Below, one piece after another: positions 10,609-36,931 of a stretch of DNA of 64,000 bases (the first letter of the stretch is position 1; the number at the start of each line of letters is the position of its first letter). The notes beneath the pieces are model-generated. The model searched no databases, was not told where the DNA came from, and worked only from the letters and a program-made list of their open reading frames with translations. The stretch lies in the IMG/VR virus record IMGVR_UViG_3300032313_001582, positions 15,725 through 79,724 of that record, one strand, 5' to 3'. This DNA comes from a virus. A program made the translations under genes and the position numbers.

Positions 10609-13600
10609 ATGAAAAATATATTTAAAGGCGGTATGTCAGCCGATTTGAGTGCTTTTGATGTTGCTAAAAAATGGAAGATTAGCCCAATCGAGTTCATGCC
10701 TATTCTGGAAAAAGGGACGGAACATGAATTGGAACATACAGACGACAAAGACGTTGCCAGAAGAATTGCCCTTGACCACATAGTTGAAAGGTTGGATTAT
10801 TACGAGCAACTGGATAAGATTGAAATGATGAAAAAGGGTGCAATATTAGAGAAGCCCGAAATTTTCAATGACATTACACTTTATTATGAAAAGAAAGGAA
10901 ATTGGCTTTTCGCTAAAGGAAATTTCTATGCGTGGCTTTATGATGAGAAGGGTGCTGGTGCTAAATTGCAAAATCAGGAGTATGATTTTATTATGTTTCC
11001 ACCGATGGGTAAGGGAAATCCATTTAGTGAAAAATATGTACCGCCATTAAGAATGATTTGGGATAAGAGTTATCAAAAGAAGTTTAAAGGTATTAATCAC
11101 TTATTGGGCATCGTAAAAGGGTTTTATGATGAAGACAAAAATCAAATCATTATTGATATGATGACGACTAATCCAAAATTCAGAAGGCAAGGAATCAATG
11201 CTCATATAATTAAAAATTTAAGAGAGGAATTTGGAGTTAGTCAAGATGATGTAATTTTTGATAAACCAACAAAAGAGGGCAAGTTGTTTGAGAGTTCAAA
11301 AAAGTACGAAAATGGTGGTTTAATAGCACCGAATGGCGAGCAAAGTAATCTAACTCCAGAACTATATGAGTTGGTTCGAACTAAAGCGTTCAAAAATTGG
11401 TTTGGGGATTGGGAAAACGACCCAGAAAATGCCAGCAAGGTTATAGATAAAAATGGCGAACCAAAAATAGTATATCATGGAACGAATAATGATTTTACCA
11501 TTTTTGATAAAAATAAATTAGGCGAAAAAAACTTTTTCGCGGAATCAGCATCTTTAGGTTTCTTTTTTGCTGGTAATATTAAAACTTCCGAAGCATACAT
11601 CGGAATGAACTCGATGGATTGGGCAGGAGTTCAATTTGGTGCTTATGATGACATCATCAATAAATACAAACCAGAACTGGATAGTATTAACAAAGATATT
11701 CAACAGATATATGAAAAATATCGAAAACAAGAAAAGGACAATATCAAAAAATTACAAGACGAAATAATTGAAAAGATTCGTCAAACGCACAAGGATTTGT
11801 CCGAAAATGATTTGAAAGGTATTTTTATCAGAGATATGAATTGGGATGAAATTAACAAATTCGCTCAAGAGGAAAACAACTTGAATGGAAATACTCAAAA
11901 ATTGAAAGAGTTAAACGATAAAATTAAATCAGAGATAGAAGCAAAGTGGAAAGTTAAAACTAATGCAAATCCAAGAATCATTTCATTGTTCTTGAATATT
12001 AGGAATCCATACATAATTGATTATGCTAATAATAAACAAACTGACCTTTCTCAAGATATAAAAACGGCTATAAAAAATACAAATGATGGGGTCATATTCA
12101 ATAATTTGAAAGATGGAGATGACGTAGACGATATTTTTGTTGTGTTTGATTCAGAGCAAATCAAACTTGCTGATGGAACAAACACAACTTTTGATATAAA
12201 CAATCCAGACATTCGGTTTGCCAAGGGTGGCGACACAAACAGAAATTTCAATGATAAAGAATTATTGAAAAGATACAATCAAGGAGAAAGCATTGGATTT
12301 ACTGCAATTGCTCACTTAAAAGCACAAGGATTAATCGAGAGGTCAGATGGTACAAAGAGAAAAAGCATAAACAGTTTTAAGCAAGGTGGACTAATCGCAC
12401 CTAATGGTGAACTTAGTAATCTTACGCCTGAACAATACAATTTGGTCAGGACTCCAGAATTTAAAGGTTGGTTTGGTTTTTGGGATTTATATCCTTCTGG
12501 TAAAGCAAATGACTATTATCAGCCAAATGTAAGAACAATCGCAAGAGAGTTGAAGCAAGAAAAATTCTCTGCCATCCAAGAAGTGGTTGATTTTTTGAGC
12601 AAGCAAGTCAATGAAGAAGATGTGTTAATACCCATGCCAAGTAGATATGGTTATGCTACGGACACTCAAAAATTGGTTGAAAAAATATCGGAGAGAACGG
12701 GTGCAAAAGTTTTCGATTGTTTGGTAGGGAAAAAAAGGCAGAGTATTTATGAACTGAAGAAAACAAATCAAGATGTATCTGACTTTGAATTCGACTTCCA
12801 AATAAATTGTGAAATACCCAAAGCCAGAAATTATTTTATTGTAGATAATGTTATTGGAACTGGTATTACTATGAAAAATGCGTTAATGAATGTTATAGCA
12901 AGGGTAGGCAAGAATGTTAGCCCTTTAGTTTATGCCATAGACCTCAATAATATTTCCAAGGTTGTAGATGAAAATGATGAGCCATTGGTAGTTCATCATG
13001 GTAGTATTATTGATACCAAATTTGACATATTTGATTACAAAAAAGCCGATTTAGGTTTTCATTTTGGTACGAAAGAACAAGCAAAAAAAAGAGTGGAAAG
13101 CAAATCCGTTTTACCACCAAGAAAATCAATAGTCAATTCATTTTTCCTGAACATAAGAGTTTTGTTTGAAATGACTGATGTGGGCGAATGGCAGTACCCA
13201 CAACGATACATTGATGAGTTGATGTCGGATAATATTATTGAAGAAAAAGTTGCGAAACAAAAAGGGTTTTTATCATTGTATAGGCGAGAAGACAATGCCA
13301 TCATAAGGGACTACTTAAAGTCAAAATATGGCAGTTTTGTGGGGTTTGTGTACAATAACAAATACGAGGGAAATGGTAAATCATTTATTGCGTTATCTCG
13401 AAATGAAATCAAGTTAGCCGATGGTAGTAATAAGACTTTTGATAGTGACAATCCTGATATTCGGTTTGACAAAGGTGGGGAAATACAAAATTTAATAGAC
13501 CAAGGCGAAATGGAACTTAAAGTATATCCAACCACACCTGAACATGCAAATCTGTATGGGTTTAAATCCAAAAATCCTTTGTACATTCAAAGTATATTTA

Positions 13601-14238
13601 TTTCCGAAAATCAAAGATTAAAAGGTATTGGTAAAAAGGTTTTGAAGTATCTGAATGATTTTGCTATAAAAAATGGACACGATGTTATGTTTGGTCATAT
13701 TACACAAAAAGCATCTTTTTCAAAAGATGATTCAAGACAATCAAATTTGGATGATGTTGCTATGATTAAAAATTGGCTACAAAGTAACGGATATGAAATA
13801 TGTGAGGGCAACAATGATTTTTACAAGGTCGTGAACAATCCCGACATTCGGTTTGCCAAAGGTGGTAAAACCATATCACAAACTCCTGCACCAGCATCAG
13901 ACAGAGTTTCTGGAAGCAAGACAAATCCAAAAGGTAGTGCCAGTGATTCTTCGCTGGCAAGGTCAATAAAATTCAATGATTCTTTGTTAAAAGCGATTGA
14001 AAACAAAGTCAAAGCACATAACGAAGAATATCCATCTAAAAAAGTTACAATACCAACGGCAAAAGCAGTGGTACGAAGAGGTATGGGGGCTTATAGCAAA
14101 TCACATAGACCTTTCATTACTGGTGGAGCGCCAAACTCCAGACAAGCATGGGGGTTGGCAAGGTTAAATAAGTTTTTACTTAAAAAGCGTGGTGTAAAAG
14201 TTAAAAGTGCTTATGTACAAGATGATGACTTACTCTAA
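10609..14238 (+). CDS. Polyvalent protein 1: DUF5661-like, GNAT, ART-PolyVal-like, ART-PolyVal-like with PRTase insert, GNAT, DUF5824-like
   Basis: EHELEH..IALDH..DYY; FRRQGI; two NLTPE..VRT..FK.WFG..[YH]HG[TS]..GF.F..LNIR units; VDNVIGTGIT; RLKGIG; RRGMGAY..SHRP..WGLARLN; modules separated by [FYM]xxGG. Confidence 0.8.
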   Translation: MKNIFKGGMSADLSAFDVAKKWKISPIEFMPILEKGTEHELEHTDDKDVARRIALDHIVERLDYYEQLDKIEMMKKGAILEKPEIFNDITLYYEKKGNWLFAKGNFYAWLYDEKGAGAKLQNQEYDFIMFPPMGKGNPFSEKYVPPLRMIWDKSYQKKFKGINHLLGIVKGFYDEDKNQIIIDMMTTNPKFRRQGINAHIIKNLREEFGVSQDDVIFDKPTKEGKLFESSKKYENGGLIAPNGEQSNLTPELYELVRTKAFKNWFGDWENDPENASKVIDKNGEPKIVYHGTNNDFTIFDKNKLGEKNFFAESASLGFFFAGNIKTSEAYIGMNSMDWAGVQFGAYDDIINKYKPELDSINKDIQQIYEKYRKQEKDNIKKLQDEIIEKIRQTHKDLSENDLKGIFIRDMNWDEINKFAQEENNLNGNTQKLKELNDKIKSEIEAKWKVKTNANPRIISLFLNIRNPYIIDYANNKQTDLSQDIKTAIKNTNDGVIFNNLKDGDDVDDIFVVFDSEQIKLADGTNTTFDINNPDIRFAKGGDTNRNFNDKELLKRYNQGESIGFTAIAHLKAQGLIERSDGTKRKSINSFKQGGLIAPNGELSNLTPEQYNLVRTPEFKGWFGFWDLYPSGKANDYYQPNVRTIARELKQEKFSAIQEVVDFLSKQVNEEDVLIPMPSRYGYATDTQKLVEKISERTGAKVFDCLVGKKRQSIYELKKTNQDVSDFEFDFQINCEIPKARNYFIVDNVIGTGITMKNALMNVIARVGKNVSPLVYAIDLNNISKVVDENDEPLVVHHGSIIDTKFDIFDYKKADLGFHFGTKEQAKKRVESKSVLPPRKSIVNSFFLNIRVLFEMTDVGEWQYPQRYIDELMSDNIIEEKVAKQKGFLSLYRREDNAIIRDYLKSKYGSFVGFVYNNKYEGNGKSFIALSRNEIKLADGSNKTFDSDNPDIRFDKGGEIQNLIDQGEMELKVYPTTPEHANLYGFKSKNPLYIQSIFISENQRLKGIGKKVLKYLNDFAIKNGHDVMFGHITQKASFSKDDSRQSNLDDVAMIKNWLQSNGYEICEGNNDFYKVVNNPDIRFAKGGKTISQTPAPASDRVSGSKTNPKGSASDSSLARSIKFNDSLLKAIENKVKAHNEEYPSKKVTIPTAKAVVRRGMGAYSKSHRPFITGGAPNSRQAWGLARLNKFLLKKRGVKVKSAYVQDDDLL

Positions 14239-14606
14239 TGACTAAAAAACAAAAACTGGGCGATTGCTACGAAGTTGCTGGAAGGATGGCAATTTTAGGG
14301 CTTTCAAAAGCACCGAACGGAGAAAAGTTCTTAGGGAATCCTATGGTAGTCCATGGTGAAGTCGAAGGTCAGGGTAAAATCAAAGGAATACGATATGGGC
14401 ATGCATGGATTGAAGATGATGTTTATGTTTATGATTTTTCAAATGGTAGAAATTTGATGTTATTAAAAGAAGTTTATTATTATTTAGGAAAAATCATCCA
14501 AGACAAGCCAAAACTCTATAAATATACGTTCATACAAGCCAGAGAAAAGATGATTGAAACTGGTGAATACGGTCCTTGGGATTTAATAACGGAATCAGGT
14601 CTTTAA
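14238..14606 (+). CDS. Papain/transglutaminase-like Cys-His-Asp enzyme (candidate protease)
   Basis: GDCYE ... GHAWIE ... VYD, the triad order and context of the transglutaminase-like superfamily. Confidence 0.65.
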   Translation: MTKKQKLGDCYEVAGRMAILGLSKAPNGEKFLGNPMVVHGEVEGQGKIKGIRYGHAWIEDDVYVYDFSNGRNLMLLKEVYYYLGKIIQDKPKLYKYTFIQAREKMIETGEYGPWDLITESGL

Positions 14607-14610
14607 TTTA

Positions 14611-14618
14611 TATCTTTG
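14611..14618 (+). promoter_or_regulatory. Bacteroidota-type -7 promoter element (TATCTTTG)
   Basis: Intergenic TAnnTTTG before ATG 14633. Confidence 0.6.
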
Positions 14619-14632
14619 TTAAGTATTACATT

Positions 14633-17188
14633 ATGAATCAAGTATCTTTTACAAATACAGACGAAATAGGGACACCAAACAAGCCTTTAGACTCTTTTAA
14701 AGAAGGGGGCGAGATTAAACACATTTCGGGTGAAGCAGGTGGTTATTTGGTTGGTAAACGACACTCTGAGGGTGGAATAAAAGCCATCAACAAAAGCACT
14801 GGTCAACCCTTGGAAATGGAGGGAGGTGAAGTCGTTATCACTCGTAATGCAGTGAGTGACACACAGAAATACGAATTTGAAGGAGAGATGCTTACAAATC
14901 GCGAGATTTTAAGCAAGATTAATGAAGGAGGCGGTGGGGTGGCTTTTGCTGATGGTGGCGAAGTTTGTCATGTCTGTGATGCCGAGTATAATTACAAGGG
15001 TAAAAAGATGAAAGATTCAGAAATCTTCCGTGAAATGGCACTTGGTGGAGAGGTTGATGATATTTTAGATGCAGTGGATGATTTGACTTTTGAAGATTTG
15101 GATTCAAAATTTGATGACGAAACAGATGCGACTTTAGAAGCAATAAATACTATCGTTAATCAAAATAGTGGGAAAGATTATTGTTTTAAAGGCAAAAAAA
15201 ATACACCTTATGATGGCAAATATTTCTTTACCAAAGTAATAGATGCAGATATTGATGAGGCATATTTTGAGGAAGTTTTTGTAGAAAACCCAGAATATTT
15301 TACAATTAAAAGTAAAGACATAGTAGATAATTTTACTATCTTACCTAAAGGTTTTGAAATTTATGTGAACTGGTTTGAACACATCGCATATAAACAGATA
15401 GGCAATTTTCAAAGTTTTACTTATGGTAGCCCAACAGGATTAAACGCGACCTTCGATAACCCAAAAGGTTTATTTAATGTTGATACCAATGAGTGTATTG
15501 TAATAACAGAGGAAAACAGGCAATTTTTAACTACAAATAATCCAGAAGTCAGTCCTGAAACTACAAATCAAGAAATTTTGAACTATGTAGAATATTGGAA
15601 AACTTTGTTGCCAAGCACTTTTAATGCTTTTGATAAATTCGAGAATCGTTTTAAGGATGCAAAATTTTTCAGAGCCTACGCAGTAATTCATAGACAAAGT
15701 ATTTCCAGTCCAATACAATTAAAGTATTTCATGGTTTATGGAAAAATGACAGTAAAAGGTAGTGCGTTGGTAAAGATTTACACCTTTAATTTGAGAGATG
15801 ATGAAAAAAGAGTATGGATGGTTGATACTAATACCCCTTTTGACGATTTCTTAAAAAGGTCTGACAATTTTTCTAATTTATACAATTTAGATATTGTTAT
15901 TGGATATAAAGATTGCTACAACAATATTAAACTTAGTTATATCCTAAATTCTGAAATACCCATCAAAATTAAAAATTCAGACTTTAGTAATTCACAATCT
16001 TTTTTGAGTTATCTAAGTACAGGAGATAATGAATTTGCATATAAATTTGTGAATAAAGGAAGTGAAAAGACTATTGTTATTGATGGGTTAGAAGACCCCA
16101 AAATGGACGATTTAATTATCGATTTTAATCAAGTAAATACAGAGCAAGAAAGAAAATACATTGAGAGTAGGATACGAGAATTAGGATTAAAGATAAAATT
16201 GTTTCGTGCATCGATGAGTTTAGAAGAGTTTGGTGCAGTTCAAAGAGAGTTAAGAAAGTATGTAACATATCTTCAAGATTCATATTTAAGAGAAAAAAAT
16301 TCAAATCCCCTTAGTTTTTTTGAACGTATAAAAGATGCTATCAAGGTTGATTTTGGAAATATTGATGCTAAGTATCCACTGACAAAAAATCTTTCTATCA
16401 ATGGTTTATCCAGTCAACTAACCGAGCAAGAATGGTTGACAGTTCGAAGTGAAGATTTCAAAATTTGGTTTGGAGATTGGGAAACTGCATACTACGACCA
16501 AAATTACTCTGGAGTTAGTGTAATCATTGACGATGCAACCAAAGAACCTATGCCCGTTTATCATGGTACAAATGTCAAATTTGTAGACTGGAAAACATAC
16601 GAAAGTAATAACCTTCATTATTTCGCCAAGAAACGAGAAATGAGCGAATGGTTTGCCAAAGCATGGAAGATGGGTCGTGATGACAAGGCAGGTATAGAGA
16701 GTGCCCAAATTAAGCAAGGCAATCCATTTCAAGGAGAGTATTTGTATCGGGTATTTTTAAATATCAAGAACCCGATTGATTTCAGTCCTTTTGGAGTCGA
16801 TAAAGTAAAATTAGCCGATTTAGTTGCCTACCTAAAAATTAAGTATGGTGTGGGGGATTACGATTTATGGTCTAACAACGATTACTTTAAGAAAGGAACT
16901 GTAACCATGGAATCCAAAGTATTTACATGGCAAATTATTCGTTTGTGGCAGAATTTTAATACCTACATAAGAGAATTTACACCTTACGATGGGTTCATTT
17001 TTTATGAGTATATTCCAAGTAAAGCGAATTCTGGAAACATTGAAGATGCATCTTTGTCTTTCTGTGCTTTCAGAACCGAGCAAATTAAGTTTCATGATGC
17101 CGTATCGTTTTCACCTGAAGTAAGTGATAGTCGATTTGCTTTGGGTGGTAAGGTAATTACTAAAAAGAAGAGAAGAAAAACCAAATAA
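14633..17188 (+). CDS. Polyvalent protein 2 with C-terminal ART-PolyVal-like domain
   Basis: N-terminal G.RHSEGG..EMEGGE module; FKEGG/FADGG/MALGG/FALGG linkers; VRSEDFKIWFGDWE..VYHGT..FLNIKNP; start re-called at MNQVS. Confidence 0.75.
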   Translation: MNQVSFTNTDEIGTPNKPLDSFKEGGEIKHISGEAGGYLVGKRHSEGGIKAINKSTGQPLEMEGGEVVITRNAVSDTQKYEFEGEMLTNREILSKINEGGGGVAFADGGEVCHVCDAEYNYKGKKMKDSEIFREMALGGEVDDILDAVDDLTFEDLDSKFDDETDATLEAINTIVNQNSGKDYCFKGKKNTPYDGKYFFTKVIDADIDEAYFEEVFVENPEYFTIKSKDIVDNFTILPKGFEIYVNWFEHIAYKQIGNFQSFTYGSPTGLNATFDNPKGLFNVDTNECIVITEENRQFLTTNNPEVSPETTNQEILNYVEYWKTLLPSTFNAFDKFENRFKDAKFFRAYAVIHRQSISSPIQLKYFMVYGKMTVKGSALVKIYTFNLRDDEKRVWMVDTNTPFDDFLKRSDNFSNLYNLDIVIGYKDCYNNIKLSYILNSEIPIKIKNSDFSNSQSFLSYLSTGDNEFAYKFVNKGSEKTIVIDGLEDPKMDDLIIDFNQVNTEQERKYIESRIRELGLKIKLFRASMSLEEFGAVQRELRKYVTYLQDSYLREKNSNPLSFFERIKDAIKVDFGNIDAKYPLTKNLSINGLSSQLTEQEWLTVRSEDFKIWFGDWETAYYDQNYSGVSVIIDDATKEPMPVYHGTNVKFVDWKTYESNNLHYFAKKREMSEWFAKAWKMGRDDKAGIESAQIKQGNPFQGEYLYRVFLNIKNPIDFSPFGVDKVKLADLVAYLKIKYGVGDYDLWSNNDYFKKGTVTMESKVFTWQIIRLWQNFNTYIREFTPYDGFIFYEYIPSKANSGNIEDASLSFCAFRTEQIKFHDAVSFSPEVSDSRFALGGKVITKKKRRKTK

Positions 17189-17189
17189 T

Positions 17190-17197
17190 TATATTTG
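17190..17197 (+). promoter_or_regulatory. Bacteroidota-type -7 promoter element (TATATTTG)
   Basis: Intergenic TAnnTTTG. Confidence 0.55.
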
Positions 17198-17204: not shown

Positions 17205-18836
17205 ATGAAACCACGACCAAAAAATAAAAGAAGTAAGATGAATTTTATCGGTGACTCTGTAAGTAAAGCGGAGTTCCAGAAAATCGCACAATCTCTTCAG
17301 GGAATGGAAGGGGACATTTTTGATAAAGTACAAGAATTTATCAAACAAACCAGTCCTGCAAAAGAATCGTTATTAGAAAAAATTCAATCAAAAATGGAAA
17401 CTGCTGGTTTTGTACCAGCATTTTTAGATGGTAATTTTAAATCTGAGTATGTAGATTTTCAAGTTGAAATTCTAAATCCAGCATCATCAGGAATCATCAT
17501 CAGTGCTAAAAACTTAAAATACAATTTGAGTTTTGTAATTGGACTGACTGGAGATATTCAAATGGATAGTAGTAATCAGGACAATCTAACTTTACGCAGT
17601 ATTGATTGTACGATTGTTTATACGTTCCAGAGTGATAATGAAAATGTTAATGATTCTGAAGTACTTATTAATTTAAATAAATTAGAATTATCAAGAGCAA
17701 TGAATCAGTTAGAGTCGATTTATGAGAAGATGGCAAAATTGTATAATGATTCTTTGTTAAAAGAAATACAAAAAGAAATCAAAGAAGAGAAAGAGCAAGA
17801 AAAACAAAAAGATAAGCCGAAACAAGAAGAGCAAGAAGCAGATGACCAGCGTGATGAAGAGGAAGAAGATGGTAATGACGAAGACGGAGAGGATGGCGAG
17901 GACGGGGAAGATGGAGAAGATGGTGATGGTGAAGACGGAGAAGATGGTGAAGACGGAGAAGATGGTGAGGGCGGAGAAGATGGTGAAGACGGGGAAGATG
18001 GAGAAGACGGAGAAGATGGTGAAGACGGGGAAGATGGAGAAGACGGAGAAGATGGTGAGGACGGAGAAGATGGTGAAGATGGCGATGGTGAAGATGGTGA
18101 AGATGGCGATGGTGAAGATGGAGAAGATGGAGATGGTGATGGCGAAGATGGAGAAGATGGTGATGGCGAAGACGGAGAAGATGGTGAAGACGGAGATGAT
18201 GGAGATGGTGATGGCGAAGACGGAGAAGATGGTGAAGATGGCGATGGTGAAGATGGAGAAGATGGAGATGGTGATGGCGAAGACGGAGAAGATGGTGATG
18301 GCGAAGACGGAGAAGATGGTGATGGCGATGGCGATGGCGAAGATGGAGATGGGGATGGTGATGGTGATGACCTAACCGATGAAGAAATTGACCGACTAAT
18401 CAAAAGTCTAACTCAAAGCGAAGGTCAAAGTCAAACTGAAGGCGGAGATTTTGAAGACTTTTTGGACAAGGTGAACAAAGGTGAACTTGAAAACGATTTT
18501 ACTGAAAATTACAACGACCCAAGTTTGACAAGCCCACAGACAGAAACCGATGATGAAGAGAATCAAGAAGATGAAGATGATTCTGGTGATGAAATGCCTA
18601 AAGAAATTACTGGTACACTACAAGCCCTTGCCATGTTCAGTAAATTTGATAGTCAAGAAAATTTCTTAGAATCGCTTCAAGGAAGTAAAACAACATTGAA
18701 TGCATTAATAAATGGATTAACAAACGAAGAGGTCAGAGCGATTAAAACGCTTTTAGGTAAGCCAGAAATGACTAAATTCGACTTAAAATTTCAAGCAAAT
18801 CAAGATTTTGATATTATAACAACCAATCAGCCATGA
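17205..18836 (+). CDS. Protein with long acidic (D-G-E) low-complexity linker
   Basis: About 165-residue DGE/DG tract between globular ends; true start may be 17238. Confidence 0.75.
   Translation: MKPRPKNKRSKMNFIGDSVSKAEFQKIAQSLQGMEGDIFDKVQEFIKQTSPAKESLLEKIQSKMETAGFVPAFLDGNFKSEYVDFQVEILNPASSGIIISAKNLKYNLSFVIGLTGDIQMDSSNQDNLTLRSIDCTIVYTFQSDNENVNDSEVLINLNKLELSRAMNQLESIYEKMAKLYNDSLLKEIQKEIKEEKEQEKQKDKPKQEEQEADDQRDEEEEDGNDEDGEDGEDGEDGEDGDGEDGEDGEDGEDGEGGEDGEDGEDGEDGEDGEDGEDGEDGEDGEDGEDGEDGDGEDGEDGDGEDGEDGDGDGEDGEDGDGEDGEDGEDGDDGDGDGEDGEDGEDGDGEDGEDGDGDGEDGEDGDGEDGEDGDGDGDGEDGDGDGDGDDLTDEEIDRLIKSLTQSEGQSQTEGGDFEDFLDKVNKGELENDFTENYNDPSLTSPQTETDDEENQEDEDDSGDEMPKEITGTLQALAMFSKFDSQENFLESLQGSKTTLNALINGLTNEEVRAIKTLLGKPEMTKFDLKFQANQDFDIITTNQP
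17870..18370 (+). repeat. Coding tandem repeat of 9-bp/6-bp units (GAT/GAC-GGN-GAA)
   Basis: Directly visible; encodes (DGE)n. Confidence 0.9.
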
Positions 18837-21696: not shown

Positions 21697-21698
21697 AC

Positions 21699-24083: not shown

Positions 24084-24122
24084 TTAAAAAAGAAATATAT
24101 TAACTTCGCAAAAACTAACACA

Positions 24123-27944: not shown

Positions 27945-30847
27945 TGAACAAGAATATTAGATTTCTAAGCAAAGACCAAGCGTATCGTTATATGCCAAAT
28001 ACATCTATTGAAAATGATGTGTTAGATAAAGTTCGTTACACCATTGATAATCTCAAGTTTGCTGGTAATTTTTATTCAAGTTCATGGCAAGGTGGTGGAG
28101 ATGGATATTTGTACGATTTGGATACTTATGACGAATATTTGGTTGGTGGCAGAAAACTGAAAGAAGGAGAAAAAATATATCGGTATTTCACCAGAATGAG
28201 TGCCATCAGTGGTTCAACCCCATTTATTAAGATTAACATTGATAAGGGATTGTTGTATTTCTTAAAGCCAGATGATGAAGGATTGGATTTAATTGAATTC
28301 GAAACCAAAGGAATCCCTGTTAGATATTTGAATTTGATTGAAAGTGACAATGAATATTTGGCAGAGAGTGGTATTACTGATGATGAGGGTAATTTAATTG
28401 ACATCAAAGTTGGGGATGAGGTTGTTCAATATAAAAAAAGGTACACTCATGAAGAAAAAGAAGCAGTAGGAGGTAAGGGTCGTGTAATTTTAATAAATGG
28501 TGCTATGGCAAAAGTGTCTTATGGCAATGATTATGAACAATGGCTGGGATTAAATGAACTGAAAAAAATGGCAGAGGGTGGTGAATTAAAAAGTTACCTC
28601 AGTTCTCGTTCTGACATGTTTGATGAGAACGCTAAAACTATTGATAAAAAAGACATTCTTGAGGTAATTAGTTTGAGCAAAAACTCGGATAAAAAATATT
28701 GGGTCAAAGACTTAAATACAAAATATTCCTATTACATCTACAAAGGAAATTTAAGAGCGAATGATGGAACTGGAGGGATATTTAGTACCACTATACTTAA
28801 TCCAATGTGGTACTACCTCAAAGATGAACATAGATTTAAGGTACAAGAAGAAGCATTATACGATTGGGAAAAAGAAAAAGACCCAAGTATTGTTAAAGTT
28901 GGATGGGATGCCATAAAGGAAAAATTTGACAATATTTTTTACATGGAGGAAGATGGCGAAGATGAAATATTTGCCAACGAAGTAAAATTGGAGGAATCAA
29001 CATACAATTGGGACGGAAGACCAAGCCCATACAAAAAAAGAGTAAGTTTTTCGGATGCCAAATCTATGTTTCTGCAAAGTCTTACTGATGAAGAAAAAGC
29101 GATGATTGACCTTGAATACGATTATCAAGATGTTCATGAACTTTTTGGTTTAATGTCTGAAAAAAGATTCATCGTTAAGCGGAAAAAAGATGAATCAAAA
29201 GACTTTTTAGATGAATTGGAAAATATGAATTTCGAAGATAGCAGTTTGTATTTGAAAAATGGAGGCAAATTAGCATGGCAAAGCGTAGAGGTTGGTGACA
29301 ATGCTTTGGTAAAATCAGAAAATAAAATGGGTGTTGTTGTCGTGACCTATGGTCGCAGATTCCATTTGCGTTTTCCAGATGGTAGTGAAAAGACATATTC
29401 GGCTGAGGATTTAGAATTTTTACCAAGTGATTCTTACGCGAATGGTGGTAAGATAGACGATTTGGTAGGGCGTACTATCACCATGTACGATATGGGCGTT
29501 CCTGAGCCAAAATATTATACTATTTCAAGAGTAGAGATGTCGCCTCCATATTTTTCTCGTAAAACGCTTCGTGTCTACAACAAATACGGAAATTCCGAAC
29601 TTGTAGATGTCATAGAAGATGAGCAAATTGACAAATTCTTAAATGGTGAACAAGTAGAACTCAGAACAAGTGGGGGAGATTATTATGCAATTAAATTAAT
29701 GAAAGAAATGAAAAAAGGTGGAACTTTAGAAGGCGGTGTTAAAAAGAACATGATTTTCGATGAAAACGGGGAAAGAAGAACAGACCCAGAAGCGTTGGCT
29801 TACATTGAAAACACTGTTGAAATGTTGCCTCAAACCAAATTCGAGCATTCCAATGCCGAAGGCAAATACACGGCAAAAAGGAAAAAATTGCACGAAGAAA
29901 TCATTTCTCATTTTAGGGAGGATAAACCTTGTGTGAACAAAAGACCAGCCGTAGCAATTTTGACTGGTGGAGCGCCAGCATCTGGTAAAACTACATTCAT
30001 CAAGAAATATGTGGATTTAGACCCAGATAAAGTGTACCATGTGGATGCAGATGAAGTCCGTGCAATGCTTCCAGAATACAAAGGATGGAATGCAACTCAG
30101 ACCCATTTGGAAACTGCTGATATTGTTAATCGTTTGATTGACGAAATTGGTAATCCGTGTGAGCATGATTTGATTTACGATGGCACTATGAACAAAGCAA
30201 CGAAGTATGAAAAAATCGTTGACAAACTTCATAAACTTGGCTACAAAGTGTTCGTGGTTTACATCTCTATTCCAGAGCAGGTCAGCAAAGAGCGTGTGAT
30301 TTCTCGTTACAAAAAAGCAGGTCGTTATGTACCCATGAAAGTAATCGAAGAGGTTTACGATAATGGTTTGACTGCTTTTGAAAAAGTCGCTCGTGAAATG
30401 GCTGATGGCTATGTTCGTATTGATGGCATGACTGGAGAAATCATCGAAAAAGGTGGTATGGAAATGCCTAAAAACATTGAATACGCTGAAGGTGGAGAAG
30501 TAGAAAAATCATATTTGAAAAATGCCGATTCGTTGGTTCGTTCAGCAGAAAGGTATGCTCAAGCAACTTACGAAAAACCAGTAAGTAAAGGAAAGGGTAT
30601 GGCTCGTGCTTCCAAGCAGAATGGACAAATGAAATACACCGAAGTTATCGTATTTTTCCAAGATGGTGAGAAGATTACTTTCGATGAAAGCGAGTTCCCT
30701 AAATTTTTTATGAAAGATGGCGGTGAACTTGGTCAAGATTATTACGATGGATTCCAAATGCAGGTGATAACCAAAAAAGGCAATCCAGATAAAGAAGTAC
30801 AAAAACAAGACACAACATTCAAATACCGTAAAGGTGGAAAATTATAA
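27944..30847 (+). CDS. Polyvalent protein 4 with KOW/SH3-like modules and zeta-toxin-like P-loop kinase
   Basis: GGAPASGKT, VDADE, IYDGT, R..GRYVP; about 8 xxxGG linkers. Confidence 0.8.
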   Translation: MNKNIRFLSKDQAYRYMPNTSIENDVLDKVRYTIDNLKFAGNFYSSSWQGGGDGYLYDLDTYDEYLVGGRKLKEGEKIYRYFTRMSAISGSTPFIKINIDKGLLYFLKPDDEGLDLIEFETKGIPVRYLNLIESDNEYLAESGITDDEGNLIDIKVGDEVVQYKKRYTHEEKEAVGGKGRVILINGAMAKVSYGNDYEQWLGLNELKKMAEGGELKSYLSSRSDMFDENAKTIDKKDILEVISLSKNSDKKYWVKDLNTKYSYYIYKGNLRANDGTGGIFSTTILNPMWYYLKDEHRFKVQEEALYDWEKEKDPSIVKVGWDAIKEKFDNIFYMEEDGEDEIFANEVKLEESTYNWDGRPSPYKKRVSFSDAKSMFLQSLTDEEKAMIDLEYDYQDVHELFGLMSEKRFIVKRKKDESKDFLDELENMNFEDSSLYLKNGGKLAWQSVEVGDNALVKSENKMGVVVVTYGRRFHLRFPDGSEKTYSAEDLEFLPSDSYANGGKIDDLVGRTITMYDMGVPEPKYYTISRVEMSPPYFSRKTLRVYNKYGNSELVDVIEDEQIDKFLNGEQVELRTSGGDYYAIKLMKEMKKGGTLEGGVKKNMIFDENGERRTDPEALAYIENTVEMLPQTKFEHSNAEGKYTAKRKKLHEEIISHFREDKPCVNKRPAVAILTGGAPASGKTTFIKKYVDLDPDKVYHVDADEVRAMLPEYKGWNATQTHLETADIVNRLIDEIGNPCEHDLIYDGTMNKATKYEKIVDKLHKLGYKVFVVYISIPEQVSKERVISRYKKAGRYVPMKVIEEVYDNGLTAFEKVAREMADGYVRIDGMTGEIIEKGGMEMPKNIEYAEGGEVEKSYLKNADSLVRSAERYAQATYEKPVSKGKGMARASKQNGQMKYTEVIVFFQDGEKITFDESEFPKFFMKDGGELGQDYYDGFQMQVITKKGNPDKEVQKQDTTFKYRKGGKL

Positions 30848-30850
30848 ATC

Positions 30851-31438
30851 ATGGAAAAAGATAAAGTTGAAATAAAGAACTTTCACAAAAACATCATGGG
30901 AACACTCTCATTCGATATGAAATTGTCCAAGATGAGAAAGCCACAGGAGTTCATAGTTTATCCTGTATCGTCTGCTGATGCCGATAAACCCATAACCATC
31001 CAGAGCGATACGAGAATTGGTGTTATTGATTTGGAAACAGGTAAAGGATTGATGAGTCAGTCGCACACTGGAGGTGCTTATTTTGTGCATTTGAGCGTTG
31101 ACGAAAAGATTCGATTCAAATTGGATGATACCCAGTTAGAATTGTTCCGTGAAAAGATGCGTAGTACCTCTAAAACTGGAGATAGTGTTATCAAAATTGA
31201 TAATGAAGGTGCAAGCAAATTTAAAAAAGGTGGTAGCCTTGAAGATTATACCATCGATATGGTGAAAAGCGATTTAAAAGTGATGGAAGAATATGCATCA
31301 AAAATCGCATCTTTGTTGGACAAATTAGGCTATGTAGAACCTTGGATTGCAAGCAAGATTTACATCGCTGGTGAAAATATAGAAAACATTAAACATTATC
31401 TTGAATACGAAGTTGAAGGCTTCCCTACAAAAAAATAA
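30851..31438 (+). CDS. Two-module protein split by an FKKGG linker
   Basis: Beta-rich N module, FKKGG, helical C module (EPWIASKI). Confidence 0.7.
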   Translation: MEKDKVEIKNFHKNIMGTLSFDMKLSKMRKPQEFIVYPVSSADADKPITIQSDTRIGVIDLETGKGLMSQSHTGGAYFVHLSVDEKIRFKLDDTQLELFREKMRSTSKTGDSVIKIDNEGASKFKKGGSLEDYTIDMVKSDLKVMEEYASKIASLLDKLGYVEPWIASKIYIAGENIENIKHYLEYEVEGFPTKK

Positions 31439-31444
31439 AATCTG

Positions 31445-34400
31445 ATGAATTACGATAACTATTACAAAAATGGCGGTATGACTAAAGAAGAGTCTATTTC
31501 TGCTATCGCTCTTAGAATTGGTGCAAGAAAAGAAGCAGTCGCCAAATTCGTAGAAGAAAACGACATTGATACTAAAAAAATGAACTCTGACTTGAAGTCG
31601 GGAAAAGTTTATTTCATGGACATTATCACTGCCATCGTTGGAAAACCGAACAATAAATACCAAAAGGAAATCATCAAAAAATATGGTTCTAAAATGGCTA
31701 TGGGTGGTAAAACTCAGGGTTATGATGACCGAGAAGATGAGAGAGTAGGCATGGACTATGGTAAAATTGCAGGTAAAGATTTTGTAGGTAGTCATAGTCG
31801 TATGGAGCATTCTCGTAGAGATGATGCCAGATTTGAAGAAAGAATGGCAAAGGGTGGAGAACTTACCGATGATGATTTCATAGTTGGTGATTTTTATTCG
31901 AACTCTTCTGAAGGTGGCAAATTTAAATTTGTAGGAAAAGATGAATCAGGTCGGTTGCGGTTTGAAGATTCAAAAGGAATTAATAGAATTTTTAGTCCAA
32001 AAAGAATGAATAAATATGCTGATGGTGGCATGATGGCAAGAGGTGGATATGTGAGCAAAGGAGAGTTGGTTTGGAAAAAATTAAGGAAAAGTGAAAGGAT
32101 GAAGTTTTTACACGAAAATTTCACACCACAAATAACACCAAGAAGTCAAGAAACATTAGTGGATAAAGATTATAATTTTCTTCCCAAAAATGTCAAAATT
32201 GTTATGGAAAGTAAATACGCGAATGTAGAAGACTATGCTGATGGTGGCATGATGGCAGAGGGAGGTGAAGTGTATTATGTACGCGATTTTTACCCAAACT
32301 ATGATGAGGACAAAATTGTATCAATTTTGAAGTCTAATGGTCTTAGAAAAGTTCGGAAAGCCAAGTTGTATGGAATGTCAAATCTACCACAAGTAGCAGT
32401 TTTTGAGGGTGATAAAAACAAAGCCCAAGAGATTTTGGAAAAAGAATTTCCAGATAACTACATTTCGATTTATGAAAAAGATTGGGGTAGAAAAATGGCT
32501 GATGGTGGCGAAACTGAGCGTGATACAAATGGTATGTTGTACGCTCTTCAGGAGCATGTTTCAAGCGGTGAAATCGCCAGTAAGACAAATGCTTCAAAAT
32601 ATTCAGACATCGATGAAATCAGAAGCAAAGCGATTCAGTACTACATGGAAAATGGTGATAAACCATATTCGTATGCAGAATTGGAATCTGTGTTGAAGAA
32701 ATTTGACCATACCAAATATGCTAAAGGTGGTCGTGTTTACAAAGATTGGACTGGAAGCAATTCAAAAGAAAATTGGGGTCAAGAAAATTTATATCCAAAA
32801 TATAACAACTCTTTAGATTTAATTGCTGATGTATCGGATTATTATAAAGAACTTTCAAAGGATGTTAGTCAAAATTTTTCTGACGAACAGAAAAACGATA
32901 TGATTGAAGTTCTAAAAACTGGCAAAAAAACATTTAATGATGGTGCAACATTGAAATTTGCTAATGGTGGTCGCATTCAAGAAGAAGATGATTATTTATT
33001 AGGATATGAACCTTATTTTGAAAAAAATGTGCCCATCGCATCTATTGATAGAGAGAATAAAATAGTAAGACCAACATCGGGGTATTTTCCTAAGCATCCA
33101 ATGTCAAAAAAAGCAATCAACTGGGCAAAAAAACACGGTTATGATTACATCGCTGACGGCAAAAAATATGATGATGGAGGCGAAACCGAGCGTAAAGCAG
33201 AGGCACTCAAGACCGCAGTTGAAATTGCAACCATGGCTTACAATAATGGAGTTCGAGCGTCTGACATGTCGTTCGAAGATTTTTCAGATAGAATTTTTGG
33301 TTTGTCAAATACCAGTTATCCCATCGTTGATTTGAGATTGGCGTATCAGTCGATGAAGAATGCAAACTACGCTGAAGGTGGATATATTGATGAAGATGGA
33401 CTTCATGAATTGGCACGATTGGTCATGGATAGTATTGACTATACCGTGAACATCTCTTTAGATGAATTCATCAAAGAAGTTAGCATGACTGGTTATCAAA
33501 GAGAACTTTGTATGTATGTCTTAAACATGTTCAATGAATATGAAAATCCAAAACCTCGTCTTGGTGAAGTTGAAGAGTTTCGTCTTGTAAGAGAAGGTAT
33601 GTTTGAGTATATAAAAAATTATTATCTCAATGAATATCCAACTGATGATTTGGGTGCAGATATAAATCCAAAAGCAGATTTTGATGGTTTGCTTATGGTT
33701 TTAAATGAAGGAGATGATGTTTACGAATATCTTGGTGTTACCGATAGTTTGGTGAGAGAAAGGGTTTTTGAAAAATTGGCTAATATCATGGGTGTAGAGT
33801 ACAATGTAATTTATGATATGTGGTTGTCATCCGATGATAAATTTAAGCAAGGTGGCATAATGGCTAATGGAGGGAAGATTGCCAAGGATGACGTAAAGGA
33901 TAAAATTTACTTCATGTACCAAAAATTTAAACTTGGAATGGGAGATGTTTTTGCAACAATTTTGCCTGAAAATCCAAATGGAGGAAAAATAAAATATGGT
34001 CTTCATATTCGTGACGTAGTTAATAACCCTTCAAGAACTCAAAAATATAATACACAAATTTTTGAATTGGATGCACCTTATTATCCAGACTCAAATGGAG
34101 GTATAAGATATGCTCAGAATCATCCTTATGATGTATATAAATTCAAAGCGATAGGTATGGGTAATCACCTTTTGGTTGTGGAATTACCAAGCAAAGGTCG
34201 CAGAGGATTGAGCGATTTAATTTATGATATTCTCTATAAACAAAAGAATTATGATATTAATAATATCAATAATCAAGATAAAAATATTTTGCCGAAAGAC
34301 TATCCTAATTTTTTCTTGAATGACTTATTTGTTTTCAAGGGAGATATGTTCAATTTGATGCGATTAATGGATAGAATAGAATCGGAATTTAAGTATAAAG

Positions 34401-36931
34401 GAAATAAATTGTATAAAGATAAAACCCCTTATAAAATGACGATTATCTGGAACATTCCAGAATTAAGGGATTATAATAACAAAATAACAACTCCTGCCAC
34501 ATACATACCAATAGTAGAAATCGAAAATGAATTAGAAGGCAATTCAAAAAAATTCGAAGTTGGTGGTGCTATCGAAAACCAATACGAAGGTAGAACCCCC
34601 GAAGACATTTGGGATAGCCTTGACCGTGACCAGAGATACCACTTCATTGACGACCATGCACTTCAAATAGAAATGTTGCAAGATAAAAATTATGATTTTA
34701 ATTCGGACAAATTTCCAGAGTCAATAAGCAATGATTTAGTCAAGAAATCCATGCGCTCTGACTGGAAAGACTTGGATGAAACGATACAAAATAGATTTGC
34801 AAATCATGTTAGAACGGGTGAATACGCCAAGGGTGGTGAAATTCGTTCTCAAAAAGAATTTAATAATCTTGTAGAGGAAAAACGAAGGCTTGTAAAAAAT
34901 CTTTCTCCAAAAGAAGTTGCAGAAATGTGGAATCGAAATACTATTGGTAGCCCAAATAGAATGACCGAAGAAGAGGCTAAAATGTCCAAGGCAAAAATTT
35001 ATTTGTCAGATTTATTAGTCGAAAAAGAATTAACAGAAGCAGAATATAATCAATATTTTGCAAAAGGTGGCATGATGGCTGATGGTGGTGCTATCGAAAA
35101 CCAATATGAAGGTAGAACTGCTAAGGACATTTGGGAATCTTGGAATCATGAGCAAAAAATTCATTTTTTTATAGACCATAAAGAACATACATACTATAAC
35201 ATGGGGGGTAAAGAATTTGTCGTATCTAAAAATGATAGAGAAAAGTATGTAGGTATGAGTTATGATGATTTACCAAAAACTGTAAGACTTATGATTTCCG
35301 ACCATGTTGAAGAAGGTCAATACGCAAATGGTGGTGAAATTGGTTCTATGATAACCTATAAAGGCAGAAAAACAAAAATTTTAGATGCTTACAAGGATAA
35401 AGCATTTGGTGATAGGATGGTTTACAAGGTAAATACACCTTTGTATGAAAATATAAAAAATTCTCCCATGACTAAAACTATAATTACGCAAGATGAAAAT
35501 GGTGAATATAGAAAAATAGAAAGAAGTGATTATGTTGATAAAATGGCTAAAGGTGGTGAAATATCTGAACAAAATAAAATTAACAAAAAGGTTCTTGCAT
35601 TAGTTCAGAAAGCAAATATTGATTCAAAATTAGAATTCGGTCAACTTGTTGTGTCTGCTCTCACTGATGCTAATGCTCATTCTGAAGTTAGGAAGTTCAT
35701 TTCTATCATTGAGAAAAAACCAGAATGGGCAGAAAAGCCAAAAGAGATTGACATGAAATTGCCTCGTGAAGAATATGAAAAACAAAGGGCAAAAACAGTT
35801 TATAGTTCTAAATATTATGATGCAAATGAAGAAATAAATGATTTGGGAATAAAAATCGCCAACATGTTTGGATGGGATTTCGAAGGCATTTTGGATTCAT
35901 TAATTTTTGCTTCAAAAATGTCAGGTCGTAATGATGTTGCAGAAGTTTTAGAAAAACTGAACACTGATGATGATAAACAAGATGCAACAAAAAACAAATG
36001 GGATTACACCGATGTGGATGACATTGAATATGTTGTTGTTAAAGACAAAAGCGGAAAAGAACTCAGGTTTGCTGGAAAGCACGTTTTAAGTGGTGTTCAT
36101 GACCTTCTGGAAAAAGGCGGTAAACTATCTGAAAAAGGTAAATACTATTCAAAAGACAATGTAGTGTCAGTAGTAGTTGGAGGCAAAAACATCATCGATA
36201 AAAACACTGTTTCTGGTGTTTGGATTATGAAAGATGCAAAACCCATCGCGGATGATGTTGCCGACATGAAAATTGGAAAAACTACCATTAGAAAAGGTTT
36301 TAATGGATGGGTTGGTAAAACCATGGTTGACAACTTCAAAGGTTTTGATTGGGATATAACCACAATTAAAACCTCAAGGGGCGATTTGGTGACTACTGCT
36401 CAAGGTGGTAAATCCCAAGATAATAATGGATATAAGTCATTCTCTTTTATGTTGTTCCAAGACCCTAACATTCGTTTGAAAGTTTCCCGTCCAGCCCGTG
36501 TGACTGATAAAGTTGTGTCTGCACAACATGAAGAGGCTTTGAAAGAATTCAAAGAAAGACAGGAAGAAATTGCCGAAATGGTAGACCAGATTCAAGCCAA
36601 GAAAAAAATGGCTGATGGCGGTGCAATCGGATTTGATGCATTGGCAAAAAAGGTTGCCAAAAACTATGAGGGCGATAAAGTAAAGAAGCAATACCAAGAT
36701 GAGTATGGTAAAACATACGACAAGAAAGAAGCCGAAGAAGTTGGTAAAAAAGTAGCCGCGAAAGTGTATCGTCAGCAAAAAGCAAAAGGCAAAATGGCAA
36801 AAGGTGGTGAAACATCCAATTACCGAACTAATAGTAAATTAGCAAGAATTTCCGCAAAAGCCAAAGAGATTCGTAAGGCAAACGAACCATGGAGAGATGC
36901 TTTCAAAAGAGCGAAAGCAATGATTGGCTAA
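31445..36931 (+). CDS. Polyvalent protein 5 (about 23 xxxGG linkers)
   Basis: 1828 aa; repeated [YFML]xxGG, duplicated AIENQYEGRT modules, basic C-terminus. Confidence 0.8.
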   Translation: MNYDNYYKNGGMTKEESISAIALRIGARKEAVAKFVEENDIDTKKMNSDLKSGKVYFMDIITAIVGKPNNKYQKEIIKKYGSKMAMGGKTQGYDDREDERVGMDYGKIAGKDFVGSHSRMEHSRRDDARFEERMAKGGELTDDDFIVGDFYSNSSEGGKFKFVGKDESGRLRFEDSKGINRIFSPKRMNKYADGGMMARGGYVSKGELVWKKLRKSERMKFLHENFTPQITPRSQETLVDKDYNFLPKNVKIVMESKYANVEDYADGGMMAEGGEVYYVRDFYPNYDEDKIVSILKSNGLRKVRKAKLYGMSNLPQVAVFEGDKNKAQEILEKEFPDNYISIYEKDWGRKMADGGETERDTNGMLYALQEHVSSGEIASKTNASKYSDIDEIRSKAIQYYMENGDKPYSYAELESVLKKFDHTKYAKGGRVYKDWTGSNSKENWGQENLYPKYNNSLDLIADVSDYYKELSKDVSQNFSDEQKNDMIEVLKTGKKTFNDGATLKFANGGRIQEEDDYLLGYEPYFEKNVPIASIDRENKIVRPTSGYFPKHPMSKKAINWAKKHGYDYIADGKKYDDGGETERKAEALKTAVEIATMAYNNGVRASDMSFEDFSDRIFGLSNTSYPIVDLRLAYQSMKNANYAEGGYIDEDGLHELARLVMDSIDYTVNISLDEFIKEVSMTGYQRELCMYVLNMFNEYENPKPRLGEVEEFRLVREGMFEYIKNYYLNEYPTDDLGADINPKADFDGLLMVLNEGDDVYEYLGVTDSLVRERVFEKLANIMGVEYNVIYDMWLSSDDKFKQGGIMANGGKIAKDDVKDKIYFMYQKFKLGMGDVFATILPENPNGGKIKYGLHIRDVVNNPSRTQKYNTQIFELDAPYYPDSNGGIRYAQNHPYDVYKFKAIGMGNHLLVVELPSKGRRGLSDLIYDILYKQKNYDINNINNQDKNILPKDYPNFFLNDLFVFKGDMFNLMRLMDRIESEFKYKGNKLYKDKTPYKMTIIWNIPELRDYNNKITTPATYIPIVEIENELEGNSKKFEVGGAIENQYEGRTPEDIWDSLDRDQRYHFIDDHALQIEMLQDKNYDFNSDKFPESISNDLVKKSMRSDWKDLDETIQNRFANHVRTGEYAKGGEIRSQKEFNNLVEEKRRLVKNLSPKEVAEMWNRNTIGSPNRMTEEEAKMSKAKIYLSDLLVEKELTEAEYNQYFAKGGMMADGGAIENQYEGRTAKDIWESWNHEQKIHFFIDHKEHTYYNMGGKEFVVSKNDREKYVGMSYDDLPKTVRLMISDHVEEGQYANGGEIGSMITYKGRKTKILDAYKDKAFGDRMVYKVNTPLYENIKNSPMTKTIITQDENGEYRKIERSDYVDKMAKGGEISEQNKINKKVLALVQKANIDSKLEFGQLVVSALTDANAHSEVRKFISIIEKKPEWAEKPKEIDMKLPREEYEKQRAKTVYSSKYYDANEEINDLGIKIANMFGWDFEGILDSLIFASKMSGRNDVAEVLEKLNTDDDKQDATKNKWDYTDVDDIEYVVVKDKSGKELRFAGKHVLSGVHDLLEKGGKLSEKGKYYSKDNVVSVVVGGKNIIDKNTVSGVWIMKDAKPIADDVADMKIGKTTIRKGFNGWVGKTMVDNFKGFDWDITTIKTSRGDLVTTAQGGKSQDNNGYKSFSFMLFQDPNIRLKVSRPARVTDKVVSAQHEEALKEFKERQEEIAEMVDQIQAKKKMADGGAIGFDALAKKVAKNYEGDKVKKQYQDEYGKTYDKKEAEEVGKKVAAKVYRQQKAKGKMAKGGETSNYRTNSKLARISAKAKEIRKANEPWRDAFKRAKAMIG

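Follow-up and report, generated by a model that had tools for sequence, protein, structure and literature searches.

A conserved Gly-Gly junction motif marks the borders of exchangeable modules in predicted polyvalent proteins of a virus family

The DNA analysed here is a window of 64,000 nucleotides, bases 15725-79724 of the 79,724-bp IMG/VR virus record IMGVR_UViG_3300032313_001582 (CheckV completeness 94%). The G+C content of the window is 35%, and nearly all of its genes lie on the same strand. Between window positions 10609 and 36931, six open reading frames (ORFs), all on the plus strand, encode modular proteins that carry a short peptide with two glycines, called here the junction motif. 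The six proteins are designated A (ORF 10609), C (ORF 14576/14633), H (ORF 24123), I (ORF 27944), J (ORF 30851), and K (ORF 31445). Their domains (ART-PolyVal, Zeta toxin, GNAT, and DUF5661) support the prediction that they are polyvalent effector proteins. The record itself is referred to as G000, and its relatives are given further G numbers.

Polyvalent protein A (10609-14238) has 1209 amino acids (aa) and carries six junction motifs, a degenerate MKKGA, and an N-terminal IFKGG. Its order is DUF5661 (residues 17-72), the degenerate MKKGA, GNAT, ART-PolyVal from residue 280, a small module (542-594), a second ART, GNAT (958-1086), and a C-terminal module. Pfam recognized DUF5661, three ART-PolyVal stretches, and GNAT domains in A. 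A preliminary description, made from the sequence letters, had proposed a domain order for A that was largely right; its labels "PRTase" and "DUF5824" received no Pfam support. In G005, modules of A make up a 250-aa protein with three modules; in G003, G004, and G011, they stand alone as separate genes. Polyvalent protein C (14633-17188) carries four motifs and an ART-PolyVal domain at its C-terminal end, and its terminus reads FALGG-KVITKKKRRKTK. The ATG at 14633 is a likelier start of C than the TTG at 14576 given in the ORF listing.

Polyprotein H (24123-27944, 1273 aa) begins with a lysine/glutamate-rich, net basic "carrier" module (residues 1-234, window 24123-24824) that ends ...GGRVYWENRENRSDRKSPDYPTGKPYLEKGG. 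About 12 small modules follow the carrier, and the protein has 14 motifs, including four back-to-back doublets. The carrier is kept at the polyprotein N-terminus in G001, G003, G004, and G005 and is visible in the consensus of 33 aligned database homologues. Polyprotein I (27944-30847, 967 aa) carries eight motifs and ends in YRKGG-KL-stop. Its Zeta-toxin kinase module (594-851; Pfam Zeta_toxin 657-821) is placed between MKKGG (589-593) and YAEGG (847-851), as the preliminary description had stated. J (30851-31438, 195 aa) consists of two modules with one junction, FKKGG (124-128). Polyprotein K (31445-36931, 1828 aa) has about 22 modules and 24 motifs, including four doublets, and opens with an 11-aa stub, MNYDNYYKNGG, which ends in the motif. 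No Pfam family was found in H or K, and Pfam detected no embedded peptidase domain in any of the six proteins. The motif-delimited segments of at least 30 aa in the six ORFs amounted to 52 modules with a median of 76 aa. Only five paralogous pairs occurred among the 52; the motif therefore does not belong to a recurring domain, and a tandem repeat of one domain was ruled out.

The number of [FYML]xxGG motifs had previously been put at about 6, 4, 14, 8, 1, and 23. A regular-expression search found 6 in A, 4 in C, 14 in H, 8 in I, 1 in J, and 24 (not 23) in K. Shuffling of each protein gave expected numbers of 0.98, 0.73, 1.33, 1.38, 0.15, and 2.0, respectively. The observed count was reached in none of 500 shuffles for A, H, I, and K and in 3 of 500 for C; J, with its single motif, was not significant alone (65 of 500). 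The six ORFs pooled contained 57 motifs against 6.6 expected (maximum 17 in 300 shuffles), and compositional chance was ruled out as the source of the motif by these shuffles. The strict form [FYM]A.GG occurred 37 times in the six ORFs, where 0.23 were expected, and was absent from the remaining 90 ORFs (19,845 residues). Two of the loose hits, FITGG at residue 1169 of A and YLVGG at residue 65 of I, are probably chance hits inside domains because they are lost in relatives.

The true motif is longer than the enriched [FYML]xxGG form given in the preliminary description. Aligning 147 sites from five genomes gave the full logo K-[MYF]-A-[KDN]-G-G-x-[VIMLT], with M/Y/F at P5, alanine at P4 (105 of 147 sites), and K/D at P3. 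The information extended to an aliphatic residue at P2', both in these sites and in the 1,426 database sites described below. The second member of a doublet was of the Met type in 23 of 27 cases.

Known Pfam domains fall between the motifs. An AlphaFold2 model of K residues 1-440 (67-row alignment) showed confident modules at 12-65, 157-186, 202-262, 275-347, and 384-420. The stretches 67-127, 131-156, 187-199, 265-273, 348-383, and 422-440 had low confidence (predicted local distance difference test score, pLDDT, below 50), and seven of the nine motifs in this region fell in such stretches (binomial P = 0.02). Stretches 187-199 and 265-273 were centred on doublets and lay between modules with a pLDDT of 89-97. 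The next module started 1-3 residues past the GG. Wherever this could be tested, the junction motifs did not lie inside folded domains. Internal homology breakpoints between related polyproteins were within 5 aa of a motif in 41% of cases compared with 10% for random positions (maximum 17% in 1000 trials), the former figure being somewhat inflated by the common motif, which itself extends alignments to the junction. The offsets of homology starts and ends do not separate the upstream from the downstream module as the companion of the motif, because the alignments run through the common motif on both sides.

Free-standing genes provided further evidence on the borders. ORF 14238 (14238-14606, plus strand, 122 aa) lies between A and C and contains no junction motif. 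Its homologue is also a free-standing gene in G005, and in G006 it forms residues 448-564 of a 769-aa polyprotein, with YAKGG before it and YEKGG after it. The C-terminal module of A, which follows FAKGG (1082-1086), has a 128-aa gene of its own in G003 and G004 and is flanked by motifs on both sides in G001 and G006. The free gene begins MRNGPKSLSQTPAP, in register with the embedded YKRGGRTISQTPAP, and its initiator Met is therefore at the P5 position; it ends in DDDLL-stop, where the embedded counterpart reads DDDLLK-YANGG. In G006 and G011, the zeta module of I stands alone as a gene of 315 aa, and the G011 protein has an N-terminal stub ...DYYENGG. Residues 5-133 of J match a module of a 1731-aa polyprotein of G006 that is bounded by motifs at both ends. 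The ends of the free-standing genes agree with the junction to within 3 residues.

Modules thus switch between polyproteins, and between fused and free states, in G001, G003-G006, and G011. Since the ORF 14238, A C-terminal, zeta, and J modules are free in some genomes and motif-flanked in others, we regard the modules, as compared here across genomes, as autonomous, exchangeable units. ORF 14238 and the 128-aa genes of G003 and G004 are free forms without any motif; therefore, the motif belongs to the joint. The Met-type second member of the doublets and the Met-at-P5 register of the free genes suggest that "MA.GG" junctions arose from the N-terminal ends of genes that were formerly separate. 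Linkers in the model, breakpoints, and free-standing module genes together bear out the placement of the motif at domain borders that had been proposed from the letters.

The syntenic polyproteins of G001, G003, G004, G005, G006, and G011 carry 9-29 copies of the motif each. The two glycines were identical in 85-90% of sites in inter-genome alignments, compared with a background of 60%, and 39 of 48 motifs persisted. When K residues 1-1200 were compared with 1.84 billion representatives, 1,780 matches were obtained at E <= 0.001 in proteins of 92-2,271 aa, and these typically covered single modules at varied positions. The best 150 of the 1,780 matches contained 1,469 loose motifs (1.26 per 100 aa, median spacing 67 aa). 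The logo was unchanged over 1,426 sites in these 150 representatives (<=50% identity), with alanine at P4 in 960 of them. Pfam found only DUF7659, Zeta_toxin, AAA_33, DUF5661, and DUF903 in 33 long relatives (49,000 residues) and no peptidase family. The contexts of distant matches were reached via IMG/VR and genome contigs, and all traced contigs of K relatives were members of the same virus family. A degenerate DNA pattern for the doublet matched 12 stretches in IMG/VR, against about 0.2 estimated by chance, and was confined to this virus family within IMG/VR. P5 alternates between M, Y, and F, amino acids with codons two bases apart, and all four Gly codons occur at the second glycine, which argues for selection on the peptide. 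The data confirm that the motif is real, specific, and conserved and that it marks the borders of autonomous modules.

Polyvalent proteins have been predicted to be proteolytically processed into units (Iyer et al. 2017, PMC5512222). In this study, we believe that cleavage is the most economical reading, in which the junction is the site of a viral processing protease and ORF 49152 is the best candidate for that protease; we would put its chance at a little below even. The six genes would give bead-on-a-string polyvalent proteins with about 52 autonomous, mostly unrelated modules, some of them known enzymes and most of them unknown 50-90-aa units. The junction peptide K-[M/Y/F]-A-[K/D/N]-G-G-x-[V/I/L/M/T] would be recognized by a virus-encoded protease, with the conserved M48-like ORF 49152 as the best candidate, and the modules would be freed. 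Cutting would likely take place while the proteins are loaded into the particle, once they have been loaded, or after delivery, and the scissile bond would lie after the GG or before a hydrophobic residue, as zincins prefer. The common junction-coding DNA may also act as microhomology for the gain, loss, and reshuffling of module cassettes. We infer the cutting, the scissile bond, the cutting enzyme, and the travel of the polyproteins in the virion.

ORF 49152 (49152-49940, plus strand, 262 aa) sits in a conserved morphogenesis block and is predicted to comprise a beta-sandwich at the N-terminus (1-96) and a putative zincin domain at the C-terminus (107-257). A total of 1270 homologues were found. 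H189, E190, and H193 (HExxH) and E203, E205, and D207 were invariant in 41 sequences with 51-72% identity. The AlphaFold2 model had a pLDDT of 91, and the best structural matches of its C-terminal domain were E. coli BepA (M48; Z 8.7, 120 aligned residues), 3c37 (7.0), Ste24 (6.5), ZMPSTE24 (6.4), and abylysin (5.9). Foldseek with the two-domain model returned beta-sandwich matches only, Pfam PhageMetallopep matched weakly (E = 0.12), and the sequence had no match among Protein Data Bank (PDB) chains. The gene is present in all 13 relatives above 40 kb that cover the region (G001, G003, G004, G006-G009, G011, G016, G018, G019, G021, and G022), including every genome among the >40-kb contigs that were recovered via the doublet DNA pattern and cover the morphogenesis block. 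The invariant HExxH and acidic residues, the M48-type structural matches, and the conserved presence, taken together, led us to predict that ORF 49152 is an M48-like zinc metalloprotease. It had already been named as a candidate in the preliminary description; it held its place as a predicted metalloprotease present in all relatives covering the region, and its link to the motif is what we infer. A complex prediction of ORF 49152 with K 185-285 (score 0.14, mark 0.32) spoke neither for nor against this link.

The other candidate named earlier, ORF 14238, fared worse. Its GDC, GHAW/F, and YDF elements (a Cys..His..Asp pattern) are conserved in G000, G005, and G006, and it had a language-model look-alike score of 0.95 to viral clusters automatically named McjB C-terminal domain; Pfam gave no match. 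McjB is a lasso-peptide leader peptidase that cuts between K and GG in pre-microcin J25. ORF 14238 may be a small cysteine peptidase. Its catalytic-like pattern, the McjB resemblance, and its location (next to A and C here, within a polyprotein in G006) favour the possibility that the junction is cut by an enzyme other than ORF 49152, either an embedded or accessory cysteine peptidase of the ORF 14238 type or a host protease. However, G001, G003 (a complete genome with terminal repeats), G004, and G008 all keep the motif and yielded no homologue of ORF 14238, and no peptidase family was found in the 33 related polyproteins. In addition, the doublet pattern is confined to this family in IMG/VR, and the cargo of crAss001 is not enriched in the motif. 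We consider cutting by another enzyme very unlikely. As a general processing enzyme, ORF 14238 was rejected: it was not found in these four motif-bearing relatives, and G006 has it as a motif-flanked cargo module.

Known processing enzymes were searched for as well. C5 (PF00770) and C48 (PF02902) gave no match at E <= 10 in a six-frame profile search of the 79.7-kb record, which leaves room for remote structural homologues, and MPTase-PolyVal (PF18818) gave no match in the genome at E <= 10. Adenain, Ulp1, and MPTase-PolyVal were accordingly rejected as the motif protease, as was a peptidase embedded in the polyproteins, of which there was none in the 33 long relatives or the six window proteins. 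The analogy with adenain, pS273R, and Ulp1 that had been drawn for the motif did not hold at the level of the enzyme, with no C5/C48 homologue, or of the register, with the hydrophobic residue at P5 (M-A-x-G-G) and not at P4 (M-x-G-G).

Several points weigh against cleavage by ORF 49152. The BepA match (Z 8.7) is just above the range that the tool calls uninformative, and Gly-Gly specificity is not a known property of M48 or other zincin peptidases. That protease and motif occur together adds no independent evidence, since every carrier is a relative. The codons of the motif are biased: its first Gly is GGT in 33 of 37 sites compared with 47% elsewhere, and its Ala is GCT in 22 of 37 compared with 25% elsewhere, so part of the motif conservation may be at the DNA level. 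Moreover, at least 12 proteins end in the motif, 2-3 residues, and a stop; one of them is a basic protein of 347 aa, non-modular and present in four relatives, whose only motif is this terminal one. A cut at such an end would remove almost nothing, and a docking tag fits better there.

The over-use of GGT and GCT would fit repeated copying or recombination at the junction DNA, as with cassette shuffling; judged by codons and residues, the motif is conserved at both the protein and the DNA level. This bears on the view that the junction is a passive, uncut seam, in which a flexible Gly-Gly hinge has been kept uniform through descent and recombination and the proteins stay intact as multi-enzyme strings. 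It is exactly at the motif that modules have been gained, lost, or reordered, codon choice is narrower in it than elsewhere, and some polyvalent proteins (for example ArdC, TraC1, and the virion RNA polymerase of N4) are known to be transferred unprocessed (PMC5512222). On the other hand, a hinge needs no large hydrophobic residue at P5, no Ala at P4, and no aliphatic residue at P2', all of which are kept over about 1,400 sites (<=50% identity). The M/Y/F interchange and the synonymous Gly codons point to selection on the peptide and not on the DNA, and a motif at a protein end has no domain to hinge. A mere seam is unlikely in our opinion.

The protein ends were compared in several genomes. 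The G005 homologue of I shares the end YRKGGKL with it, the C-like proteins of G003 and G004 end in FLKSGGTI, and the giant proteins of G006 and G011 end in ...KGGKVN. The 347-aa protein ends in KFKRGG[QTE][VI] in G001, G003, and G004, and its G011 homologue ends in LKDGGEI. Its gene in G003 (L028:17622-18662) runs on the opposite strand, close to the right end of the genome, and the matching region is absent from the incomplete G000 record. Terminal motifs of this kind would fit a docking signal or, by analogy, a capped Gly-Gly end as in polyubiquitin. The short motif-terminated stubs at the N-termini of K and of the G011 zeta protein look like propeptides. Three adjacent free-standing effectors, a zeta kinase, a DUF5824-like module, and an ART, were found in G011 (C9 98557-100766, L071-L072) and G006 (reverse complement 20090-23351), and each ends in the junction motif, 5-6 residues, and the common tail PDYL[KR]MFLGK. 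This tail could be a second common tag or a conserved DNA-level cassette boundary.

Such ends lend weight to a third alternative, raised in the preliminary description as a repeated packaging tag, in which the junction is a docking or loading signal, a short linear motif bound many times by a component of the virion or its assembly. The polyproteins would be recruited whole, as would single proteins with one copy. The partner might be the beta-sandwich of ORF 49152, a capsid-interior or membrane protein, or the products of two genes that lie between the polyprotein genes in all relatives, a MoxR-like AAA+ ATPase (18833-20200) and a DUF7192-like partner (20200-21696), both on the plus strand. 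These two could be a remodelling or loading chaperone pair. Docking would account for motifs at extreme C-termini, with only 2-3 residues past the GG, and after short N-terminal stubs. The conservation to P2' implies that a surface of 7-8 residues is read, and the second C-terminal peptide of the free effectors in G006 and G011 resembles a tag. However, the free ORF 14238 and the 128-aa gene of G003 and G004 lack the motif, which is thus dispensable for a module, and it is hard to see why a tag should recur at almost every border between modules or come in doublets. We consider a docking signal, with or without later cutting, rather unlikely, although it ranks next after cleavage and ahead of the seam; a signal that is first docked and then cut, like the T4 capsid-targeting sequence, would be a hybrid of the docking and cleavage readings.

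The polyprotein genes, for which we tentatively prefer cleavage, belong to an uncultured, bacterial virus family that apparently has no earlier description. Its most conserved gene (76-82% identity) encodes a HerA/FtsK-like P-loop ATPase (43184-43996, plus strand, 270 aa), which the DUF87/HerA profile matched at E = 1.8e-4 with 22.1 bits, under the 23.2-bit cut-off. Syntenic relatives of 72-85 kb were recovered via this ATPase. G003 is complete, with 84,420 bp and perfect 127-bp inverted terminal repeats, and G016 (63 kb) is the second record with inverted terminal repeats. More distant members, with an ATPase about 51% identical, have 76.7, 101, and 132 kb. The genomes of the family are linear and span 63-132 kb, inverted terminal repeats being seen in two records. 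Terminase_6N and TerL_ATPase had no match in six family records, four of them at least 90% complete, and the protein-primed DNA polymerase (PF03175) was absent from the matches in these six. No homologue of the ATPase, ORF 49152, or K 1-1200 was found in 50,697 GenBank phage records, among which tblastn of K 1-1200 gave no similarity, and megablast of window 20000-32000 returned no matches. Homologues of ORF 49152 were found on contigs of ten metagenome-assembled genomes, and 5 of the 10 were binned as Bacteroidota, which is a weak hint that Bacteroidota are the hosts.

Other genes of the family were also noted. Directly upstream of the ATPase are genes for a PAP2-family phosphatase (40670-41317), a RusA resolvase (41307-41723), and a DnaA-C-like helix-turn-helix protein (41647-42120). 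A candidate capsid gene (44319-45011, 230 aa) is 72-75% conserved and encodes a beta-rich body, preceded by an invariant doubled N-terminal element, EGF[LV]xADGFFDD ... DFMxA[DN]G. It had no Pfam, PHROG, or PDB-chain sequence match, and a look-alike search gave Hcp-like clusters at 0.87 only, below the 0.9 line of the tool. A conserved 196-aa gene at 38075-38665 matched PHROG 3000 (E = 8e-26) and had no Pfam match; the H...S-x-G-C pattern of its product resembles L,D-transpeptidase catalytic sites. Window 60698-63998 encodes collagen-triple-helix repeat proteins, one of 734 aa and one open-ended ORF, whose counterparts are a single 5,338-aa ORF in G003 (51961-67977) and one of 4,183 aa in G004. 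Upstream of the collagen-repeat genes there are several glycosyltransferase/FkbM-methyltransferase fusion genes (56497-60688). Before the start of the window, at the left end of the record (L041:645-3262), the opposite strand carries two neighbouring genes for N6/N4 DNA methyltransferases, which had no homologues among the relatives examined.

In its full form, our proposal is that an undescribed, terminase-less family of large (63-132 kb), linear bacterial viruses with terminal repeats devotes about a quarter of its genome to at least 50 anti-host modules made as polyproteins, with a punctuation code that a dedicated viral zinc protease reads. We think that this full proposal is possible but doubtful. 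If true, it would be a bacterial-virus counterpart of the polyprotein maturation of adenovirus and African swine fever virus (ASFV), combined with a recombination grammar for cassette swapping. If the junction is a processing or loading code, a sequence rule would split viral "dark matter" into functional units, about 52 here, and the reach of the rule would be about 1,400 junctions in 150 related database proteins. Many modules match the size of known small phage inhibitors, and each unit, which could be cloned and assayed individually, would be a candidate factor in anti-defence or host takeover. The processing prediction made for polyvalent proteins in 2017 would gain a named site and a named candidate enzyme, and a natural compact protease/site pair would become available for multi-protein expression from one gene in bacteria. 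The carrier is of interest in itself, being an abundant uncultured family with no relative among the 50,697 GenBank phage records.

Among known systems, the six proteins resemble the polyvalent proteins, giant viral multi-domain proteins that combine conflict enzymes (ART-PolyVal, Zeta toxin, acetyltransferases, and DUF5661) with unknown modules, show extensive mosaicism, and are predicted to be processed into units (PMC5512222). Protein A likewise combines several conflict-related domains in one polypeptide, and mosaic reshuffling was seen between the relatives. That work attributes processing to an embedded MPTase domain, and the words "linker" and "glycine" are absent from it. A literature search for peptide strings and Gly-Gly sites in polyvalent proteins returned nothing relevant. 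The proteins described here differ in having no MPTase-PolyVal match, the domain being a frequent and not obligatory companion there, and in having an explicit junction peptide, modules that are mostly 50-90 aa and family-less, and a separate M48-like gene for the candidate protease. The crAss001 proteins gp44-gp47 are also large and are thought to be packed and ejected. Among them, gp44, gp45, gp46, and gp47 (first 1293 aa) contained 1, 3, 0, and 2 loose motifs compared with 0.9, 1.9, 0.4, and 1.2 expected, which is no enrichment. The non-tailed viruses that package with FtsK/HerA (Varidnaviria-like) can be compared in the ATPase, which here is HerA/FtsK-like below the cut-off, together with the lack of a terminase match in six records. 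For the jelly-roll major capsid protein of such viruses, the candidate here is ORF 44319, which had no sequence match.

The polyubiquitin precursor consists of head-to-tail units of about 76 aa that end in Gly-Gly, with an L-R-G-G register, and its last unit is capped by one or more extra residues. The units described here are also about 76 aa, and the ...GG-x-x-stop ends resemble a capped last unit. Unlike those of polyubiquitin, the modules are mostly unrelated to each other and are unrelated to ubiquitin, and the register differs.

The adenovirus protease AVP cuts after the GG of (M/I/L)xGG-x, and the ASFV protease pS273R cuts after the GG of GG-x in pp220 and pp62. The likeness lies in the working principle only, with a hydrophobic residue and Gly-Gly at the unit borders of virion polyproteins or precursors, putative ones in the present case; those viruses also have a linear genome with inverted terminal repeats, as seen in G003 and G016. 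By contrast, the junction described here has the hydrophobic residue at P5 with Ala at P4 and a constrained P2', and its candidate enzyme is a metalloprotease and not a cysteine protease.

The tailed-phage head proteases also read short codes: T4 gp21, with the capsid-targeting sequence, cuts after the glutamate of L/I-x-E, and gp175 of phiKZ-like phages cuts after that of S/A/G-x-E. The virus type (no terminase was found here), the motif, and the protease class all differ from those of T4 and phiKZ-like phages, and the code occurs here up to 24 times per protein. As in those phages, a short code is common to many proteins, which here would be packaged ones. The T4 targeting peptide is both loading signal and cut site, and a junction of this kind would reconcile the cleavage and tag readings.

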